Below, piece by piece: positions 5,129 through 30,180 of a stretch of 32,000 nucleotides of DNA (position 1 is its first letter; every line of letters begins with the position of its first letter). The translations under genes and the position numbers were made by a program. The DNA comes from Pirellula staleyi DSM 6068 (GTDB lineage: Bacteria > Planctomycetota > Planctomycetia > Pirellulales > Pirellulaceae), in the NCBI GenBank assembly GCA_000025185.1, contig CP001848.1, positions 1,470,001 through 1,502,000 of the forward strand, given 5' to 3'. The notes beneath the pieces are model-generated. The model saw nothing but the letters and a program-made list of their open reading frames with translations. It ran no database searches and was not told the DNA's origin.

Positions 5129-5800
5129 TTACCCATTTTCCAAGATCCAGGTTGTCGCGTAGTGGGCGAGCTCGGTGCCGCTAGTGAGGTCGAGTTTCTG
5201 CCGGATACGGTCACGATAGGTCTCCACCGTCTTCACGCTCAGGTGCAGGCGTTTGGCGATTCCGGTGGTCTTTTCACCCTGTCCGATGAGACGAAAGACC
5301 TCGAGCTCGCGATTGGCCAGGGTGTCGAGTGGCGAACGGGTGAGATGCTTCTGCTCGCCACCGACAGTGCGCCGCAGCATCGTCTCGACCATCGCGTCGC
5401 TGAGGTAGACCTTACCTTCGAGGACGCGGCGGATCCCCTCGACAATCGTATCCGTGGCCTGGTCCTTGGTGATGTAACCCAGCGCACCGGCGAGGAGCGC
5501 CCGTTCTGCGTAGAGCGATTCGCTGTGGGTGGACCAAACGAGCATACGAACCGTGTCTTGGCGGTCCTTGATGCGCTTGATCAGGTCGATGCCGCAGCCT
5601 GTTTTGAGAGAGATATCGATCACAGCCACGTCGGGCTGAGTTTCGGCGACGAGGCGGAGGGCCTCGCCCAAATCGGCAGCTTCCCCGCACACTTCGAGGT
5701 CGGTCTGTCGACCGATTCGCAGCGCTAGCGCCTCGCGCACGGCGGGGTGGTCGTCGACGATCAGTACTCGCGCTCGTTTTTTGACTTGATTACGGTTCAT
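5129..5800 (-). CDS. NarL/FixJ-type response regulator (receiver + LuxR-type HTH), 223 aa
   Basis: ORF track gives 5129..5821. I trimmed the start to ATG 5800 ([23 protein letters not shown]) with AGGAGA just upstream; this overlaps the kinase stop by 11 nt. Receiver motifs are DD, VAVIDISL and YITKD. The C-terminal HTH reads LANRELEVFRLIGQGEKTTGIAKRLHLSVKTVETYRDRI. Confidence 0.9.
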   Translation of the reverse strand: MNRNQVKKRARVLIVDDHPAVREALALRIGRQTDLEVCGEAADLGEALRLVAETQPDVAVIDISLKTGCGIDLIKRIKDRQDTVRMLVWSTHSESLYAERALLAGALGYITKDQATDTIVEGIRRVLEGKVYLSDAMVETMLRRTVGGEQKHLTRSPLDTLANRELEVFRLIGQGEKTTGIAKRLHLSVKTVETYRDRIRQKLDLTSGTELAHYATTWILENG

Positions 5801-8800
5801 GGCTTCTCCTGTCCAACACACAGGTTACCATCGTGCCGGCTGGAAGCACTTTTTCGAAGCTGAGCGTCGCACGAATAATCGCGGCCCGGTTGCGCATGAT
5901 GCGCAGGCCAAGACCACTGTGACCCTGGGTTGGCTGGTCGGGGATGCTGATACCGATGCCGTCGTCTTGCACACGTAGCGTCAGGTCTTCGCTCGACTCG
6001 ACAGAAATGCGGATGTTCTTGCACTGCGCATGCTTGATGGCGTTGTGCACTGCTTCATGGGCGATGAGATAAAGGTGGGTCGCGATGAGGTTGTCCTCGA
6101 CCAGCACCGGTTTAGGACAGTCGAAGGTGCAGCTCAATTTGCCTTCCAGCTGGGTACGTGAGGCTAGGTCGGAGAGCGCTGCCATGAGCCCTTCGGAATC
6201 GACCGATACGGGACACAGCCCACGCATGACGGCCCGCAGATCTTGCCGGCTCCGATGCAATCCCTGAACGACGCGCTCGACCAAATCCGACGCGTTGAGC
6301 GGATCGGTCCGGAGTGTCTCGGCCAAATCGCCCGCCAGCATGCTCAGAGCGGTCAGTTCCTGGCTCACGCTGTCGTGCAGATCCTGACCAATGCGGCGCT
6401 GCTCGAGCGAGGCAATCTCCACGACCTCACGCTCCAACTGCTTCCGGTGGCTGATGTCGCGGAGAATGCCGGTGTAGAGATGCAGGTGATTCACCTCGCT
6501 GACCGCCAGATCGACCGGGAAGGTCGAACCATCCTTCCGCAGTCCTTCGACCTCGCGACCATTGCCGATGATGTGCTTCATGCCCGTCTGCTGATACCTG
6601 GCGAGGTACTGATCGTGGTTTCCTCGGTAGGGGGAGGGCATGATCATTTTCACGTTTTGGCCGATCATTTCGTCGGCAGCGTATCCAAACATCCGTTCCG
6701 CAGCCGCGTTGACCGATTGAATCAATCCTTTCGCGTCGATCGTGATGATGGCGTCGGCGGCGGCGTCCAAAATGGCCGCCAAATGGGCTTCGCGGTTGTG
6801 CAGGACCCCCGCAGAGGTCTCGACGACCTTGGCGTGTTGTTGTGCCACACCTTCGGCGGTCAATTTGCGTTCGGTGATGTCGACAAACGTGATGACCACG
6901 CCGTCGATCCGATTGTCCAGCGTTCGGTAGGGGAGAATCCGCCGCACGTACCAGCGGCCATCTTCCGCGCGGACTTCCTTTTCCCGGGGGATCAGATTGC
7001 GCAGCAGTTGCTGAATCTCGGGGAGCAAGTCGTCGTCGATAAACCGCTTGACGATATCGCCAATCGACCGGCCACGGTCGGTGGCAATGATCCTGAACAT
7101 CCGCGAAGAGGCTGGAGTAAAAAGCTTGATCCGCAGGCTGCCGTCCAAAAAGATCGTGGGGATGTCGGTGGTATCGAGAAGGTTGGCCATGTCGTTTGTG
7201 GCCGATTCCACCTCCTCGATTTTGTCGTGAAGCTGGTTGTTGACGGTGCTCAGCTCCTCGTTATACGAGTGCAGCTCTTCCTTGGAGGTTTCCAGTTCTT
7301 CATTCGCCGACTGGAGCTCCTCGTTCATCGACATCACTTCTTCGTTCGAGCCCTTGAGCTCCTCGTTCGCGCTCTCCAGCTGCTCGATGGTGTTTTGCAG
7401 GTCGTCGCGCGTGGTCTCCAGTTCTCGCTCCAGCTGGTGCAGCAGGTCGGGCTCATCCGTCTCGCCGCGTGCACCTAAGTCCAATGGGGATTCACCGGCA
7501 GGATGCCGCTGTGCCTGGAAAGAAATCAGCAGCAGACCGGTGGTCTGTTTCGACGTGTGAAGCGGCTCTGCTTCGATATTCACCCGGCAGGGCTCCCCCG
7601 CGCGGCGCAAGATTGCGTCGTTGATGCGCTGCGGCGAATTTTCGCGGATGGCCCGGCGGATCACCACGCGCAGCTTCGACGCAAGTCCTGGGCGCGCCAT
7701 CGCAAACAGGTTCTGGGTCGGGGCACCTCCGGGCTGTACCAGGTAGTCCTCAGTCGGTCCGGCGAAGTGCAGCACTTCGTAGTTGCGATTGATCACCACG
7801 CAGGCCAAATCGAACCGGCGAAGGAGGGAATTCTGTGCAAGTTCCGCCAGCTTCGGAGGGACCGGTGCCCGATTGGTGGATGGCGGCAGTGCTGGGCGCG
7901 GCTCGGACTGCGTCACCGGAAACTGCAAATCTTCAGCCCGAAGGGGGCCCGTACGCTTATAGATGCGCCACTTTTTCGACACCGGTTCGAACAGCTCGGT
8001 TTGCCGGCCAATCGTCTCCGAGGGACCCAGAAATAAGTAGCCTCCTGGCTTGAGAGCGAAGTGCAACAATGCGAGCACTTTCCGCTGTACGTCGGGTTCG
8101 AGATAAATCAAGACATTGCGGCAGCTGATCACGTCCATTCGTGAAAAAGGAGCGTCGGCAATCAGGTTTTGAAACGCGAACGTTACTGTTTCGCGCAACT
8201 GCTTGCTGACCTGCCAGTGCACTTCGTCCACCCGTGTGAAGAAGCGGGCAAGTCGCTCCGGCGAGACATCGGCAGCGATTTCATCAGGATAGAGTCCGCG
8301 GCGGGCAATCTCGAGCGCTGGTTCGTCGATGTCGGTGGCGAAAATTTGCAGCCGACATGGGTTTTGAGCCAGCGACTGATGTTCGAGCAACAGCATGGCG
8401 ATGGAGTAAGGCTCCTCCCCTGTCGCACACCCAGGAACCCAGACACGAAACGGGGTGTCAGCATCCTTGGTCTGCAGGAGCGGGGCGACGACTTCCGTCT
8501 CCAGGTAGTGAAAAGCCTCGGGATCGCGGAAGAACCGGGTCACACTGATCAGCAGATCGCGCGCGAGTTGCTTCACCTCCTCAGGGTGCTGGCGGAGATG
8601 AGCGAGGAAATCCGCGAGGTTCTCGAAGTTGCTCAGTCCCAGTCGGCGTTCCAGTCGTCGCGCAAGCATCTTTTTGCGATAGCCGCGAAAATCAAATTTC
8701 GTACGGGCACGCAAAAGTGCGAGCAATTGGTTCAGGTGATCGGGCGCTTCTTCGACTTCAGCGATGACTCTGCCACCGTTGGCAAGGAAGTGGCGCACAT

Positions 8801-9506
8801 CTTTTACAAGCACTTCGGGCATCTGCTCGACCGGCAGCACATGATCGGCCAGTCCCGTGGCGATCGCGCTGGCGGGCATGCCGGGATAATCAGCCGTACT
8901 TGGGTCTTGAACCAGGGCGATTCCACCCGCAGCTTTCACTGCCTTCAGCCCCAGCGTTCCATGCGAACCGGTCCCGCTCAGGATGATGCAGATCGCTTTC
9001 TCCATCTGATCGTCGGCCAGCGATCGCAAAAAGAAATCGATCGAAGTTTGCCAACTGACGCGCTCGACCGGACCCGTCAGTCGGAGCACACCCCCTTCGA
9101 TGGTCATATTCTTGTTGGGCGGGATGATGTAGACCCGGTTGGCCTCGACAGCCATCCCCTCCGTGGCCTCCACCACCGGCATCGATGTCTGCCGGGCAAC
9201 GAGCTCGACCATCAAGCTGGAATGGGTTGGGGCCAGGTGCGGAATGAGTACGAAGGCGATGCCGCTGTCCGCTGGCATGGCTGCGAAAAACTTCTTGAAA
9301 GCGTCGAGCCCACCAGCCGAAGCGACCAGCCCCGCCACAGGGAATTCCGGTCGACCGCGCTTGCTGTCCAGGTCATCCTCTTCAGCCAGTTCCGCAGGAT
9401 AGTCCCTATTTGGTTCGGGAACCTTGGCCGCAACTATCGGCTCGGGAGGTGAGTCGGCTCCTTCGGTACCTGTTGCCGACATCTTCCCTCGTTTTTTCGC
9501 AGCCAT
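5790..9506 (-). CDS. Hybrid CheB methylesterase - CheR methyltransferase - coiled coil - PAS - PAS - HisKA_3/HATPase sensor kinase (1238 aa)
   Basis: The N-terminal third is CheB-like ([29 protein letters not shown]). A CheR-like SAM methyltransferase follows ([28 protein letters not shown]). Next is a coiled coil with reiterated NEEL ([33 protein letters not shown]), then two PAS regions. The HisKA_3 H-box is [18 protein letters not shown], and the HATPase reads HNAIKHA...DDGIGI...GLGLRIM. GGAGA lies upstream of ATG 9506. Confidence 0.9.
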
Positions 9507-21920: not shown

Positions 21921-22380
21921 GTAGATGTTAAATGCTTCCCAGATTGGTCTGCTTATAATTATTGAAATCACCACTCTATAGTAGGGAATGCAATTTCTCC
22001 CAACTATTGAACCTCGACAAGCAATTGCTGGCAACGAAACCTCCTGCTTGAAGATGCAGGTGTGTTGTCCTATTGGATGTATACGTTGCCTCGTGGACAG
22101 GGTCCATGGACAATGCCATCCTGGATGGGCTCCTATGTTTTTGAGCTTCAGCTTGACCCGGACGAACAAGATTGATTTGTGGTCGGTAGAAACCAGTTTG
22201 GGTAGTGTAGGAGTCCGATTGCGGTTTTCTTTGGTAGGAAGAAAGCAACTCTCATAAATATTATTATGAGAAAAGCCATTGCCTTGCCAGCGCTGGGCTT
22301 TACACTTCAGCCGGTAGTGATGTTGGATGACTAGGCGAACAAAACCCCGTGTACGGCGGGGGTTTGATTGAAAAGTAAGC

Positions 22381-22430
22381 CGGCGCGATGAGGTACCCAT
22401 CGGTATTTTTATCGCGTCGTTTTTTGTTTT
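22381..22430 (+). terminator. Intrinsic-terminator-like hairpin in the ATPase/adhesin spacer
   Basis: CGGCGCGAU (22381-22389) pairs with AUCGCGUCG (22411-22419) over 9 bp, including one G.U. The loop is 21 nt and is followed by UUUUUUGUUUU (22420-22430). Confidence 0.55.
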
Positions 22431-22499
22431 CTGCACCGGTTGCTGCGCGCATTGCTCTGCGAAAGATCAATGCGAGTGACCTGCTTGGAAGAAGTGGGT

Positions 22500-22609
22500 A
22501 GTCGTCGGGTGACTGAATAAAGGGCAGCTCGGGAATGCCGGGTGGCCCGTTAATAAGTTAGCCGATGTGGTGAGATACTCGTTGAGTATGCCGCTACGTC
22601 GGCTTTTTT
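22500..22609 (+). ncRNA. Candidate structured RNA element, copy A (three helices, ends in an intrinsic terminator)
   Basis: Aligns along its whole length with 29419-29523. Conserved blocks are AGTC..GGGWGACT, TAAA, TGCCGGG, GTTAATA, GCCGAYGTG and ACGTCGGC followed by T6-7. Helix P2 is GGGC/GCCC here versus TAGCCG/CGGCTA in copy B. The terminator stem is 22561-22572 / 22592-22603 with a U tract at 22604-22609. Confidence 0.45.
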
Positions 22610-22789: not shown

Positions 22790-25700
22790 ATGGTTATGCA
22801 AAAAATCGCCGGTCTCATTGGGAAAGTTTGGTCTCGTCAACAGACACGCCGAACACGGAGCACCAAACCGATAGCCCGGCGACTAGGGTTTCTATGTCTC
22901 GAAGACCGCCGCATGCTGGCGGGGATTCTGGGGACAGCGGAGGGGTTCGCAGTTTTAGCAGGTTCGACCGTCACAAATACGGGGCCCTCTATCATCAGCG
23001 GCAACGTGGGACTCAGCCCAGGGACTGCGATTGTCGGTTTTCCACCTGGGATTGTCATCCCTCCCGGCGTCATTCATGCAACGGATGCTGTGGCGCTACA
23101 AGCTCAAAGCGATGTCGTGATTGCGTACAACGATCTTGCCGGCCGGGCATCCGACTTTGATTTGACAGGTCAAGACCTGGGGGGACTAACACTCGTACCA
23201 GGTGTCTACACCTTTTCGTCGTCGGCTCAATTGACCGGGATGCTGACGCTTGATGGCCAAGGAGACCCCGACGCCGAGTTCATTTTTCAAATCGGCAGCA
23301 TGCTGACGACGGCAAGCGCTTCTTCCGTGATCATGATCAACGGTGCCGACAGTTGTGACGTCTATTGGCAGGTTGGGAGTTCCGCAACGCTCGGAACCGG
23401 TACAGATTTCGTCGGGAGCATCGTCGCCCTGACTAGCATCACTCTCACCACGGAAGCCTCGATCCTGAATGGCCGAGCGTTGGCCCGAAATGGGGCTGTG
23501 ACGCTCGACTCCAACGAGATTTCCATCGACGGCTGCGGCGACATAGCCTGGGAAAAGCGCGACGAAGCTGGCACGCTCCTGGGGGGAGCAGTCTTTACGA
23601 TCACCCCCGATCCCACCGATGGCATCGGCATTTTGACAATCGTCGATAACGGTCCCGGTGATGCTGACCCCGCGCTCGGGCAATTCCTCGTCGATGGCGC
23701 TCTGTTTGGAACCTACACCGTTACCGAAACGGCGGCCCCACTTGGTTATGCGATCGATGCCGACCCAACCCGCGTCATCGTCGTGACTCCAGCTGAAATG
23801 CATCCGACGATCGGTGTGCAAGGGACCGACGATGCGGGCGTGACCGACGAATCGGACTTCCACAACAGTTTGCTTCCCATTGAAGTAGGGAGTATCGCTT
23901 GGGAAAAGCGCGTCGCGAGCGGTGTGCTGCTGGGTGGCGCGATCTTCACGATCACCCCCGATCCACTCGACGGCGTGGGGATTCTCACGATCCTCGATAA
24001 CGGCCCCGGCGATGCCGACCCCGCGCTCGGTCAAATCCTGGTCCTTAACACGCTGCCCGGCAGCTATACCGTGACTGAAACCGTGGCTCCACTGGGCTAC
24101 AGTCTCGATGGCGATATCACGCGCATCGTGGTGGTAACCGATGGTGGACTGACGCAAGTGATCGGCGTGCAAGGGACCGACGATGCGGGCGTGACCGACG
24201 AGTCCGACTTCCACAACAGTTTGCTGCCGATTGAAGTAGGGAGCATCGCTTGGGAAAAGCGCGACGCGAGTGGTGTGCTGCTGGGTGGCGCGATCTTCAC
24301 GATCACCCCCGATCCGCTCGACGGCGTGGGGATTCTCACGATCCTCGATAACGGTCCCGGCGATGCTGACCCTGCGCTCGGTCAAATCCTGGTCCTCAAT
24401 ACGCTGCCCGGCACCTACACCGTGACCGAAACCGTGGCTCCACTGGGATACGGACTCGATGGCGATATCACACGCATCGTGGTCGTAACTGTCGGCGGAC
24501 TGACGCAGGTGATCGGCGTGCAAGGTGCGAATGATCCGGGTGTGACCGACGAGTCCGACTTCCACAACAGTTTGCTGCCGATTGAAGTAGGGAGCATCGC
24601 TTGGGAGAAGCGCGATGCCAGTGGTGTGCTGCTAGGCGGCGCGATCTTCACGATCACCCCCGATCCACTCGACGGCGTGGGGATTCTCACGATCCTCGAT
24701 AACGGCCCCGGCGATGCCGACCCCGCGCTCGGTCAAATCCTGGTCCTCAACACGCTGCCCGGCAGCTATACCGTGACTGAAACCGTGGCTCCACTGGGCT
24801 ACAGTCTCGATGGCGATATCACGCGCATCGTGGTGGTAACCGTTGGCGGACTGACGCAGGTGATCGGCGTGCAAGGTGCGAATGATCCGGGAGTAACGGA
24901 CGAATCGGACTTCCACAACAGTTTGCTGCCGATTGAAGTAGGGAGCATTGCCTGGGAAAATCGCGACGCGAGTGGTGTGCTGCTGGGTGGCGCGATCTTC
25001 ACGATCACCCCCGATCCGCTCGATGGCGTGGGGATTCTCACGATCCTCGATAACGGTCCCGGCGATGCCGACCCTGCGCTCGGTCAAATTTTGGTCCTCA
25101 ACACGCTGCCCGGCACCTACACCGTCACGGAGACCGCAGCGCCACTGGGGTACGGTCTCGATGGCGATATCACGCGCATCGTGGTGGTAACCGTTGGCGG
25201 ACTGACGCAGGTGATCGGTGTGCAAGGCGCGAATGATCCGGGTGTGACCGACGAGTCCGACTTCCACAATAGTTTGCTACCGATTGAAGTAGGGAGTATC
25301 GCTTGGGAAAAGCGCGACACGAGTGGTGTGCTGCTGGGTGGCGCGATCTTCACGATCACCCCCGATCCACTCGACGGCGTGGGGATTCTCACGATCCTCG
25401 ACAACGGCCCCGGCGATGCTGACCCTGCGCTCGGTCAAATCCTGGTCCTCAATACCCTGCCCGGCACCTACACCGTGACCGAAACAACGGCGCCGCTCGG
25501 CTATGTGCTCGATACCGATGCGACTCGGGTCGTCATTGTGACTGTCGGCGGGCTCACCCAGGTGATCGGTGTGCAAGGGACCGATGATGCCGGAGTGACC
25601 GACGAATCGGATTTCCACAATCGTCGATCGAACGTGATCATCATTGGACCAGGAAAGAGTCCCCAGACGCCGCAGCAAGTCACCGTGATTGACGAGTCGA

Positions 25701-27658
25701 GCGGAGAGATACTGGTGCAGTTCGCTCCCTTCGGAACTACGTTTCAGGGGGGCGTGCGTGTCGCTGCTGGCGATCTCACCGGCGACGGCATCGACGAAAT
25801 CATCGTAGCTTCCGGACCGAGCATCGCGGGGGAAGTGCGAGTCTACTCCCAGAGTGGCGACCTGCTGACCTCGTTTTTGCCCTATGGTTCGACCTACGTC
25901 GGGGGAGTTCAGATCGCTGTTGGCGATATCGATGGCGATGGACTGCTCGACATCATTACGGTTCCTAGCGCCGGGCGTGCCGAGGTCAAAGTCTTTCGAA
26001 ATGTGCTTGTAGTCGGGGCACCGACGTTCGATGCTGTCAATCCGTACCGAGATTTCCTTGCCTTCCCCGCATCGTTTATTGGTGGCGCGGTGGTGGCTGT
26101 CGCCGACATGGGAAGCACTCCGCTGGTGAATGGTCCTTTCGGCAACACGCTCGACCAGAAAGCAGAAATCGTCATCGGCAGCAGTGCCGGCATGCAGGCC
26201 ACGGTGAAGGTGTTCGACGTGAGTGGCATGGCAACGTCGACACCCAATACCGTTCCCGCACACGTTCGAAGCTTCACGCCGTTCACCACTTCCACCAGGA
26301 TCTACAAGGGTGGAGTCTCGCTCAGTGTCGCGAGAATCAATGCCGATCTTGTCCCCGATATCGTGGTGGGGGCTGGAGTCAACGGTGGTTCGCTGATCGA
26401 TGTTTGGGGCTGGAGCAACACTCCTTCCGCCACGCTCGCCAGCTTGTCGGCCAATGGACTTGGCTTTGCTGCGTTCACGGGAACCAGCCAAACCGCTGCG
26501 GTTCAGGTGGCCACCATGGATACCAACGGCGACGCGATCGCGGATGTTATCCTGGCTGCACAAGGGCCGAGCGGAATCACGGGGCAGATCAACGAGTTCG
26601 ACATCATCAGCACCGCGCCGCTGCAGGTTTCGCTCGCCACGGCTGTCCCTGGCACTTATCCCGGTCCTTCCTACATCGCGACCATTGTCAGTCCTATCCT
26701 GCCAGTGGAGGCAAACCTGGCTGCCAACATCCAAAGTAGCTCGGCCCCTCTCGAAGTGGTCCCCCCTGCGACCCGTTTCTATGTGGTCAACGACGACAGC
26801 GCGAATCGGACCTACGAATATGGAGAAAACGGCGAAGCCAATGAGAATTACACGCTCAGCAGTGCCAACACTACTCCCCGTGGAGCGGTCAGCACTGCGG
26901 CAGGTGACAAAGTTTGGGTGGTAGATGCCAATCGAAAAGTCTTCGTCTATGACGCCAGTGGCAACCTGCTTGGGAACTGGACGGCGGGCACACTGGCGAG
27001 CAACGCGACTGTGGAAGGGATCGCCACCAACGGCACCGATATTTGGATTGTCGATGCTCAAAGCGACAAGGTTTACAGGTACACAAATGCCGCCAGCCGA
27101 CTTTCCGGCAGCCAGAACTCGGCCAGCAGCTTCATGCTCAGCAGCGGGAACACAAGTCCCAAGGACATCGTCACCGACGGCGTGCACTTATGGGTGGTCA
27201 ACGATGCTGCCGAAGACAAGGTGTTTAAGTACACGATGTCTGGAACGCTTGTCGGAAGCTGGGCGATCACCGGTGGTGGTGGCGGGCCGACCGGCATCAC
27301 ACTCGACCCCGCAGCCCCTAGCCATTTGTGGATTGTCGATTCGAATGCCGACCGCGTTTATCAGTACGACAGCGCTACGGGGCGCACATCGGGTTCGCAA
27401 GCATCTTCGATCAGCTTCGCTTTGGAGGCTGGCAATACCAACCCCCAAGGGATCGCTGATCCACCGGTGAATTGGAACTCCTCTAACGACTCGACGAGCT
27501 ATGCTGCCAAACAGGCCGCCGTGCAAGATACGGCGCTGCTGGCCTTACTACTTGAAATGGACTGGACCATTTCCACCCGCCGTAGGTCTGCCGAACTCGA
27601 TTCGTCGGCAGATGCTTCACGAACTTCGCTGGCCGCATTGTTACCAGCGGGCTTCTAG
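22790..27658 (+). CDS. Giant secreted/surface protein (1622 aa): DUF3494 ice-binding-like domain + 6 SpaA/Cna-B-like repeats + FG-GAP/VCBS repeats + propeller-like repeats
   Basis: GGAG lies 7 nt upstream of ATG 22790. The N-terminus contains [16 protein letters not shown]. Residues ~48-250 ([41 protein letters not shown]...[15 protein letters not shown]) match the DUF3494/IBP fold family. Six 117-aa repeats follow ([24 protein letters not shown]...[15 protein letters not shown]). FG-GAP motifs are present ([27 protein letters not shown]). Four blades of the type W(V/I)VD....KV(F/Y).Y close the protein. Confidence 0.9.
   Translation: [1622 protein letters not shown]
23543..25648 (+). repeat. 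Six in-frame tandem repeats of 351 bp (117 aa) inside the giant gene
   Basis: Repeat starts at 23543, 23894, 24245, 24596, 24947 and 25298 are exactly 351 bp apart (codon ATH of the IAWE motif). Units 2-5 are near-identical at DNA level; units 2 and 4 share a ~200-nt stretch with a single difference by eye. Units 1 and 6 are more diverged. Confidence 0.95.
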
Positions 27659-29418: not shown

Positions 29419-29523
29419 AGTCGGGAGACTAAGTAAATAGCCGTTGGGCCTGCCGGGCGGCTAGTTAATAGTAGGCCGACGTGCCGAGAAGCCTACGGGC
29501 TGCGCGGCACGTCGGCTTTTTTT
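29419..29523 (+). ncRNA. Candidate structured RNA element, copy B (three helices, ends in an intrinsic terminator)
   Basis: P1 is AGUC-GGGA-GACU (29419-29430). P2 is UAGCCG (29438-29443) paired with CGGCUA (29458-29463). GUUAAUA follows as a linker. The terminator is a perfect 12-bp stem, GCCGACGUGCCG (29475-29486) with CGGCACGUCGGC (29505-29516), an 18-nt loop and a U7 tract (29517-29523). Confidence 0.5.
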
Positions 29524-29559: not shown

Positions 29560-30180
29560 ATGCCAGCCCCCCTGAGTCGAGCGGTGAGCAGCAACCCCTC
29601 TGGGAGTCCTCGTTTCAGCAAGAGTCCCGAGCTACTCCAGGCAACAACCGATCTCTCCGAGCCCGCCGGTCTCGCTTGCTTAGCCGATGTTTTTGTGATG
29701 CTGTGCGATTGGCGAGGTCGTTCCACATGGACTAGCGGCAATGATTCCCTGGGGAAAGTGGGCGAACTTATCTGGGAGCATTTGGCACTCGACTCCCTGG
29801 AGCAGGCCAAGCATGCTTTAGGACAAGTAGTGGCTATTCGCGTTCCTCAGGTACTCGACGTGGTGCACAAGAATGGCGATCGTATCCGTGGTCGACTCTG
29901 GCCACTCGATTCTCCGGAAATTGCTGTCTGTCTTCTGGGGTCGCGAGTCCCTGGCAATTTACGGCAGCTTTCGCAGCGAGAGCGGGATGTCCTCGACTGG
30001 CTCGCCTATGGATTCGAACCGCGATCGATTGCCGAAAAACTTGATATTAGTATTAGCACGATCCACACGCATCTAAAACATGCCCGTGAAAAGCTGGCAC
30101 TTCCAACGCTCGAATCGCTCATCAGTTTTGCCGCCCGCTACTGCTATCCCATGAGCCTCCCTTTTGAGCAAAAGACTTAA
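29560..30180 (+). CDS. LuxR/GerE-family transcriptional regulator with an uncharacterised N-terminal sensor-like domain
   Basis: The ORF track starts at ATG 29539. ATG 29560 has ACGGAG 9 nt upstream, and either start is possible. The C-terminal HTH reads LSQRERDVLDWLAYGFEPRSIAEKLDISISTIHTHLKHAREKL. The N-terminal ~140 aa may be PAS-like but I cannot assign them confidently. Confidence 0.8.
   Translation: MPAPLSRAVSSNPSGSPRFSKSPELLQATTDLSEPAGLACLADVFVMLCDWRGRSTWTSGNDSLGKVGELIWEHLALDSLEQAKHALGQVVAIRVPQVLDVVHKNGDRIRGRLWPLDSPEIAVCLLGSRVPGNLRQLSQRERDVLDWLAYGFEPRSIAEKLDISISTIHTHLKHAREKLALPTLESLISFAARYCYPMSLPFEQKT

Follow-up and report, generated by a model that had tools for sequence, protein, structure and literature searches.

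A Planctomycetota-wide family of ~113-nt leader RNAs that are likely conditional intrinsic terminators

Introduction

A 32,000-nt stretch of Pirellula staleyi DSM 6068 (GenBank assembly GCA_000025185.1, contig CP001848.1, positions 1,470,001 to 1,502,000 of the forward strand; the whole stretch is hereafter called the window) carries two copies, A and B, of a short element. An initial annotation, made from the letters alone, had proposed that this element is a functional RNA, either a small RNA (sRNA) family or a cis-acting leader. The locus raises the question of what kind of RNA it encodes and what this RNA does to the genes behind it. Computational analysis of the window and of related loci indicated that copies A and B, together with a third copy, C, are likely to be Planctomycetota-wide 5' leader RNAs of ~113 nt that serve as conditional intrinsic terminators (attenuators), and that the element probably decides between stop and read-through of transcription.

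The ~113-nt RNA is a new, previously undescribed family of a known kind of leader RNA. As the initial annotation had suspected, it belongs to no named RNA family: a search of Rfam 15 gave no window match at gathering score, and at E ≤ 10 there was no hit for copy A and only a chance hit for copy B (mir-341, 19 bits against a gathering score of 90). Full-text literature searches returned no description of the family, and the sole earlier candidate cis-regulatory RNA motif that they found for Planctomycetes was the Rhodopirellula-1 motif (Weinberg et al. 2010, PMC2864571), which is likewise multi-copy and located 5' of genes. In the published alignment (PMC2864571) it is a single bulged hairpin with an AAC..GAU..GAAC ... 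CGUU base. Identity with Rhodopirellula-1 was rejected, as that motif differs in sequence and architecture and is devoid of the conserved blocks of the present family.

Elements in the window

Copies A and B were found at the positions given by the initial annotation, on the + strand and alignable end to end. The 18-nt block GTCGGGWGACTRARTAAA that they share occurs exactly twice in the window compared to 0.04 expected occurrences. The fold of each copy has three hairpins, a small one (P1), a long one (P2) and a third that is rich in G+C and runs into U6-7, with fold z-scores against shuffled sequences of -4.3 and -5.1. The folding energy of copy A was -51.7 kcal/mol on the + strand and -29.3 kcal/mol for the complement, a difference that is due to G.U pairs. 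A first covariance model (R1), built from copies A and B and three orthologues, scored copy A at 101 bits and copy B at 122.9 bits. The family model (R2), built mainly from sequences of other genomes, scored them at 96.5 bits (E ~1e-18) and 89.3 bits (E ~1e-16), respectively, with E-values that are rough after a shortened calibration. The count of two copies was too low, since the covariance models also detected copy C (R1: 54 bits, E 4e-10; R2 with filters off: 78.7 bits, E 1.6e-14), which is more diverged than A and B and lies in tandem 68 nt 5' of copy A. No further copy was found in the window by R2 with filters off.

Family size and distribution

One genome per species was searched with a degenerate pattern that had been derived from four sequences, which yielded at least 120 stretches. 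Full-length elements were confirmed by the model in 118 of 120 pattern stretches, and copies missed by the pattern were often added. Overall, at least 187 distinct full-length members were identified as covariance model matches, all 187 of which differ from each other; copy numbers and taxonomic range are lower bounds. The initial annotation was too small in scale for what is a phylum-wide family, and it also missed the antiterminator pairing described below. By record titles, nearly all members are from Planctomycetota, namely Pirellulales (including Thermoguttaceae, Lacipirellulaceae and Pirellulaceae), Planctomycetaceae, Gemmataceae, Isosphaeraceae, Phycisphaerales, Tepidisphaeraceae and Ca. 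Kuenenia. The 113-nt element is present in the classes Planctomycetia, Phycisphaerae and Brocadiia before the same gene families. Members occupy both strands, and 51 of 121 loci have at least two copies within 8 kb.

The consensus of the family is GAAGUCGUCGGAUGACUAGAUAAAGGGCAACCCGGC...GCCGGGGGGCUCGUUGACGAGUAAGCCGACGUGGUCGAA..CC....GGUGUUC..CCACGUCGGCUUUUUUU. Conservation begins sharply ~6 nt before GUCGG, with nothing conserved upstream and no conserved flanks. Conservation was the same in the 56 members that fall outside the search pattern as in the rest, and is therefore no product of the pattern.

A few short member contigs are binned as Victivallales, Verrucomicrobia or Chloroflexota. High-scoring elements were seen on L042 (2-kb contig, Chloroflexota bin), L036 and L096 (Victivallales metagenome-assembled genome, MAG) and L124 (Verrucomicrobia MAG), and these look like mis-binned planctomycete contigs. 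The L042 element scored 107 bits, and its downstream open reading frame (ORF) clusters by BLASTP with the Ice_binding adhesin-like protein of the window. Pattern matches on L095 (Chlorobiota) and L114 (Bacteroidetes) were left unconfirmed by the model and were discarded as chance.

RNA structure and covariation

Among 61 members, 90.5% of the cells were paired and 26 of 37 pairs showed double changes. None of 500 shuffles reached the observed values, and slid controls were far lower. Covariation was found at 13 of the 15 P2 pairs as well as in the upper terminator stem and its inner hairpin, while hardly any variation was seen in P1 (GUC/GAC) or in the 9 lower base pairs of the terminator stem (GCCGACGUG/CACGUCGGC). 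A 2x2 internal loop inside P2 (A29 A30 / N46 G47) is conserved, and the U tract has at least 92% T at six positions. With at least 187 distinct members and strong covariation, the proposal of a functional structured RNA was borne out.

Several details of the first structural description had to be revised. Compensatory changes between copies A and B had been listed for three helices; they stand for P2 (G-C to U-A and G-C to A-U at its base) and for the terminator stem (one G-C to C-G), and fail for P1. P2 is a helix of 11 bp, to which a UAA/UUA extension adds further length. The TAAA and GTTAAT blocks, thought to be single-stranded, partly pair with one another and extend P2. In addition, GTTAATA and TGCCGGG had been taken as conserved blocks and are not kept even in the nearest orthologues (L004, L006).

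Gene context and promoters

Flanking genes were called with a home-made codon model as the best ORF per flank. The downstream best ORF was on the same strand as the element in 140 cases and on the opposite strand in 10 (150 scorable, 93% co-oriented), whereas the upstream best ORF was on the same strand in 74 and on the opposite strand in 51 (125 scorable). The median distance from U tract to start codon was 45 nt, and DUF2294 genes mostly start at 40-47 nt. This stretch is unconserved save for Shine-Dalgarno-like purines. A gap of ~45 nt is too short to hold a separate promoter, and the downstream gene would have to be expressed by read-through. Predicted promoters lie upstream of the element and none is evident after it. 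Element pairs less than 700 nt apart were tandem in 9 cases, divergent in 10 and convergent in none. The element is the 5' leader of a co-oriented gene, and of the two options left by the initial annotation the gene context favours the cis-acting leader.

The exact hexamer TATAAT was found 24 times in the 86 nt upstream of the element (-90 to -5) compared to 0.7 expected occurrences (34-fold). The upstream -10 boxes (TATAAT, TACAAT, TAGAAT) are accompanied by TTGC(A/T)TT 17 nt further up, as in sigma70-type promoters. The end of the -10 box lies either 8-20 nt or 40-70 nt before GUCGG, and the longer class has an extra variable hairpin; no promoter at a fixed upstream distance was found. A subset of leaders (e.g. 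L023:6790-6850, L035, L036 and L037) has an extra 5' hairpin of the GGUGGAGC…GCUCCGCC type followed by AGAAGUGAAUUUGAAGUC, which may constitute a subfamily's accessory domain. A related extra hairpin plus AGAAGUG is present in copy A.

A Pfam scan of 138 downstream proteins showed MpsC/DUF2294 (37), Response_reg (7), Radical_SAM (6), CsbD (6), Sigma70_r4_2 (5), Ice_binding (4), DUF1328 (4), FA_desaturase (3), BON (3), Transgly_assoc (3), Ferritin (2) and ECF sigma (2). Dps and adhesins also belong to the downstream gene set, and YflT was seen among genes near family elements. Compared to the sigma-B, RpoS and EcfG regulons, which show the gene mix of a general stress response, the downstream genes look like a general-stress-like set. 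Cold-shock proteins and Hfq were not enriched near the element.

Two competing folds

The invariant 5' strand YGUCGG (positions 6-11) is the same sequence as the terminator 3' arm CGUCGG (99-104), and CCGACG (65-70), within the terminator 5' arm, is complementary to both. Two mutually exclusive folds were predicted. The first is a rod that consists, from base to tip, of helix alpha (6-11/65-70), a 3x3 loop (AYG/AAG), helix beta (15-17/59-61, ACU/AGU), a second 3x3 loop (ARA/AMG), the P2 extension and P2. The second is the terminator. The rod was assessed by the minimum free energy (MFE) fold of a truncated RNA that ends with the terminator 5' arm, and the terminator by the full-length MFE fold. 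Helix alpha was present in the truncated-RNA MFE fold of 181 of 185 members (median -8.3 kcal/mol), and the terminator was present in the full-length MFE fold of 175 of 185. The rod was the MFE fold of the truncated consensus and of copies A, B and C, with z-scores of -5.85 for copy A and -3.57 for copy B.

The pairs of alpha and beta are 96-97% compatible and almost invariant. Variation offers two points of support only. C16-G60 is replaced by U16-A60 in 4 members and by U.G in 3, and the sole variants in the shared CCGACG, A68G and C69U, have compensating changes in the terminator and can still form wobble pairs with the 5' strand. No triple covariation linked the 5' strand to both terminator arms; these wobble-compatible transitions were all that was seen. 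The predicted alpha and P1 pairings rest on thermodynamics and invariance.

Proposed mechanism

A sigma70-type promoter would start transcription between a few nt and ~65 nt before the element, and the nascent RNA would fold first as the rod, a long irregular hairpin with basal helix alpha (YGUCGG with CCGACG) and, above it, beta, P2 and the highly conserved purine-rich internal loops. The newly made terminator 3' arm CGUCGG could then displace the 5' strand from CCGACG. This strand exchange would complete the strong hairpin followed by the U tract and stop transcription, and the freed 5' strand would fold as the small P1 hairpin, whose loop presents GGA. An effector would set the balance between rod and terminator, and read-through would allow expression of the downstream gene. 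In such a kinetic switch, stabilisation of the rod would lead to read-through and capture of the 5' strand to termination. In the window, the targets would be a giant adhesin-like protein behind two serial leaders and a CsgD-type regulator behind copy B. The analysis shows the family, its structure, its position as a 5' leader and the two exclusive predicted folds, whereas the conditional nature of termination and its control are inferred.

Several points weigh against this explanation. Helix alpha and P1 are almost invariant, so that covariation cannot confirm them, and position 7 varies in ~20 members without compensation. The C16-G60 covariation may come from just one or two independent events. 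The terminator of the full-length RNA is far more stable than the rod, so that a switch could work only kinetically. The start sites, the termination and the read-through are predictions from sequence, all confirmed members are from MAGs or metagenome contigs, the genome scan gave at least 120 stretches as a lower bound, and in 27 cases the downstream ORF was too weak for a score by the home-made codon model.

It is quite possible, if somewhat short of probable, that one RNA switch before dozens of genes per genome governs the general stress response of the phylum, in the role that alternative sigma factors have elsewhere. It would then be either a new alarmone or ion riboswitch class or the first TRAP-like control of intrinsic termination by CsrA; with CsrA, DUF2294 would be the partner of the CsrA paralogue encoded in its operon. 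The at least 187 members over three Planctomycetota classes are in any case a large undescribed RNA family; to our knowledge, almost no RNA regulators are known from Planctomycetota, and abundant, widely conserved bacterial leader RNAs that are still undescribed have become rare finds. The family would offer a handle on a stress regulon in which CsbD, BON/OsmY-like proteins, Dps, DUF1328, YflT, desaturases, adhesins and response regulators are joined. The many CsrA paralogues of the phylum would gain a first candidate RNA target and DUF2294/MpsC a functional context, and stress-gene switching in Planctomycetota would become testable with one RNA and a few mutants. The family model could also serve the annotation of thousands of MAG loci.

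CsrA as candidate effector

Within the attenuator explanation, control by CsrA or another protein is possible but less likely than not, and the leading candidate, a tentative one, is a CsrA paralogue that acts on the GGA hairpin and favours termination. CsrA bound to P1 would keep alpha from forming and so promote termination, a case of negative autoregulation. GGA is located at the P1 loop (GUC-GGAY-GAC) in 178 of 187 members. Approximately 32 csrA homologues were found in 948 kb of loci, 18 of them 468-493 nt after an element and 4 directly behind one. Leader-DUF2294-csrA operons, in which DUF2294/MpsC is followed by csrA, number 18 (L050, L081, L070, L111, L072, L060, L088, L100, L021, L071, L110, L044, L055, L073, L027, L015, L032 and L082). 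Aligned with E. coli CsrA, the planctomycete CsrA shows 36% identity and retains both the MLxLxR start and an arginine equivalent to R44. The prevalence of CsrA in Planctomycetota is unusually high (PMC13443453). By analogy, DUF2294 might be a partner of CsrA in the fashion of FliW. The DUF2294 proteins are 85-91% identical across many soil metagenomes and at times fused to CsbD (P0124, P0129, P0138); a homologue search returned metagenome and MAG proteins only among its top 120 hits.

Known protein-controlled attenuators (the TRAP/trp leader, PyrR, BglG/LicT-RAT, HutP) set a terminator against an overlapping alternative fold and a protein decides between them, and the folds predicted here are alike. 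The gene of the regulator itself is often right behind such leaders, and here a csrA paralogue is in the commonest operon. However, the proteins and RNA sites of those systems (GAG/UAG repeats, RAT hairpin) are absent here; CAT_RBD, PRD and HutP were absent among the 25 commonest of 108 downstream Pfam families. We know of no case in which CsrA drives intrinsic termination. As in CsrA/RsmA targets and in CsrB, RsmY and RsmZ, GGA is in the loop of a short hairpin and is linked to csrA and to biofilm or stress genes (CsgD-like regulator, adhesin). In contrast to CsrA targets, it lies ~150 nt from the ribosome-binding site and not over it, and CsrA binding leaves most of the conserved RNA unaccounted for. 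Leaders of CsrA-regulated mRNAs also have a second site at or overlapping the Shine-Dalgarno sequence; of the 187 members, 157 carry a GGA in the 70 nt downstream, ~150 nt from P1, a share close to our rough chance estimate of ~70%.

Further points speak against CsrA. Each element has a single conserved GGA, which is the only one in 83 members, and further GGAs occur at no conserved position. CsrA dimers, in contrast, usually bind two GGA sites. Copy A carries GGGU in place of GGA. Finally, CsrA binding would not explain ~25 conserved internal-loop nucleotides.

Alternative explanations

These loop nucleotides are the basis of the closest alternative, an ON-type riboswitch in which the rod (6-70) is an aptamer and a stress ligand (alarmone, second messenger or cation) locks alpha and blocks the terminator. 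It keeps the attenuator architecture and differs from the explanation preferred here in the effector only. Taken alone it is unlikely, and a small ligand or ion that binds the rod is nearly as likely an effector as a CsrA paralogue. The ~25 near-invariant nucleotides are in symmetric purine-rich internal loops (A12 Y13 G14 / A62 A63 G64; A18 R19 A20 / A56 M57 G58; and the 2x2 loop of P2), which in the modelled rod would be compatible with a binding pocket. The closing helix of the aptamer would directly share sequence with the 5' arm of the terminator, which is the simplest ON design known. In the ON-type pbuE (ydhL) adenine riboswitch the 3' strand of the closing helix doubles as terminator 5' arm, the same layout as here, and stabilisation of the sensor leads to read-through by way of co-transcriptional strand displacement, as would be the case in the mechanism proposed above. 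Tandem copies occur here as in several riboswitch classes, and many copies per genome before mixed signalling, adhesion and stress genes are reminiscent of second-messenger riboswitches; the c-di-GMP-I (GEMM) riboswitch is present in many copies, at times in tandem, before mixed signalling, adhesion and regulator genes. However, the RNA has a different fold from GEMM and no match to the Rfam GEMM models, and is unlike any Rfam aptamer in sequence or structure. It is a rod with internal loops and not a multi-helix junction, its ligand would be hypothetical, and no downstream gene is an obvious transporter or biosynthetic or degradative enzyme that hints at one.

A trans-acting sRNA family would make each copy a ~113-nt gene of its own, acting by titration of CsrA through the GGA hairpin or by base-pairing, with the neighbouring gene incidental or secondary. 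The near-consensus promoters, with a start at times only 1-6 nt before GUCGG, and the strong terminator with its conserved U tract would give a discrete small RNA, and the extreme sequence conservation between classes of the phylum and the GGA hairpin with csrA linkage fit such a role; riboswitch-derived sRNAs with dual roles are known. Even so, this explanation is improbable. The co-orientation of 93% of the scorable downstream genes at a median gap of 45 nt, with expression that must come by read-through, and the zero convergent pairs argue for a leader. The competition between 5' strand and terminator arm would be purposeless in a simple sRNA. The known sponges CsrB, RsmY and RsmZ carry 4-22 GGA motifs, at least 4 in each and mostly in hairpin loops, compared to one conserved GGA here. 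Apart from the leader function, the terminated 113-nt RNA might have an additional trans role.

A repetitive extragenic element, miniature inverted-repeat transposable element or plain terminator family, spread by duplication or mobility and devoid of regulatory role, is hardly credible: the multiple clustered copies, the occupation of both strands and the bona fide terminator-like hairpin agree with the scenario of a scattered repeat raised in the initial annotation, but the copies are always aimed at a gene, being unlinked to upstream 3' ends and strongly linked to downstream 5' ends, covariation maintains RNA helices, the structure is strand-specific by virtue of its G.U pairs, three classes keep the 113-nt element before the same gene families, 187 distinct copies imply no recent burst, and the 5' edge is sharp, with upstream promoters, no conserved flanks and no convergent pairs.

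Features and genes of the window

The coordinates of the three copies and of the genes behind them are given in Table 1.

Table 1. Leader copies and associated features in the window.
Feature	Details	Position	Strand	Basis
Candidate promoter of tandem leaders C/A	-35 TTGCCT 22279-22284; 16-nt spacer; -10 TACACT 22301-22306	22279-22306	+	Hexamer scan
Copy C	5' strand GUUGG 22322-22326; GGA 22325-22327; P2 22336-22370	22316-22430	+	Covariance model, folds
Copy C terminator	Hairpin 22382-22418; U tract 22420-22425		+	Covariance model, folds
Extra hairpin between copies C and A	CGCAUUG / CAAUGCG	22448-22474	+	Read from sequence
Copy A	5' strand CGUCGG 22503-22508; P1 GUC 22504-22506 / GAC 22511-22513; P2 22518-22552	22498-22612	+	
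Copy A terminator	Hairpin 22560-22604; U tract 22604-22609; 5' arm CCGAUG 22562-22567, complementary to copy A 5' strand		+	
Gene 3' of copies C and A	1622-aa secreted adhesin-like protein (Ice_binding, 6x SpaA, FG-GAP)	22790-27658	+	Pfam
Copy B	P1 AGUC 29419-29422 / GACU 29427-29430, loop GGGA; 5' strand GUCGG 29420-29424; P2 29434-29467	29414-29525	+	
Copy B terminator	Hairpin 29473-29518; U tract 29517-29523; CCGAC 29476-29480, complementary to copy B 5' strand		+	
Gene 3' of copy B	206-aa CsgD/LuxR-type regulator (GerE helix-turn-helix)	29560-30180	+	Pfam

The candidate promoter before copy C fits the family-wide upstream consensus TTGC(A/T)TT-N17-TA(T/C/G)AAT, and the hexamer scan found no promoter between copies C and A. 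With a promoter only 5' of C, the two copies are probably attenuators in series on one transcript. The hairpin between them resembles the variable 5' hairpin of members with a promoter 40-70 nt upstream. The counterpart of the window locus is in a Planctomycetota MAG (GCA_002483025.1, contig DLHC01000004.1). Copy A differs at several positions from NCBI contig L001:3289-3403, which is a close variant and not identical; the differences include AAGUAAGCC in the contig vs AAGUUAGCC in the window, and U8 in the contig vs CU6 in the window at the terminator end.

The adhesin-like gene contains six 351-nt tandem repeats (23458-25620), 80-95% identical, which correspond to the SpaA/prealbumin-like domains. 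The NCBI record of this locus has a 1505-aa product, and the repeat number either differs between assemblies or is collapsed in one of them.

Copy B is located in a divergent intergenic region. The CsgD/LuxR-type regulator behind it starts 37 nt past the U tract with GGAG before the start codon, and the exact 206-aa protein is present in public assemblies (P0001). The element was found 5' of regulator orthologues at 68-81% identity (L004, L005, L006) and was absent 5' of orthologues at 55-62% identity (L007, L009, L010), and is therefore not tied to the CsgD-like gene. The latter three have in common ATCGGCTAT(A/T)TTG at ~50-60 nt before the start codon (L007:4935-4960, L009:4940-4955, L010:4940-4955), without a leader, which may be a different promoter or operator. 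In L006 (3552-3725), a 57-aa ORF directly 5' of the element is like the N-terminal part of the CsgD-like regulator (…LADAFAMLCDGRGSTWTSEADLPVKVGEFI…) and may be a gene fragment or partial duplication.

Finally, a 21-nt periodic repeat (CAGCTCCTCGTT-like) was seen at 7251-7425 of the window within a large minus-strand ORF (5790-9506), which suggests a heptad or coiled-coil repeat protein.

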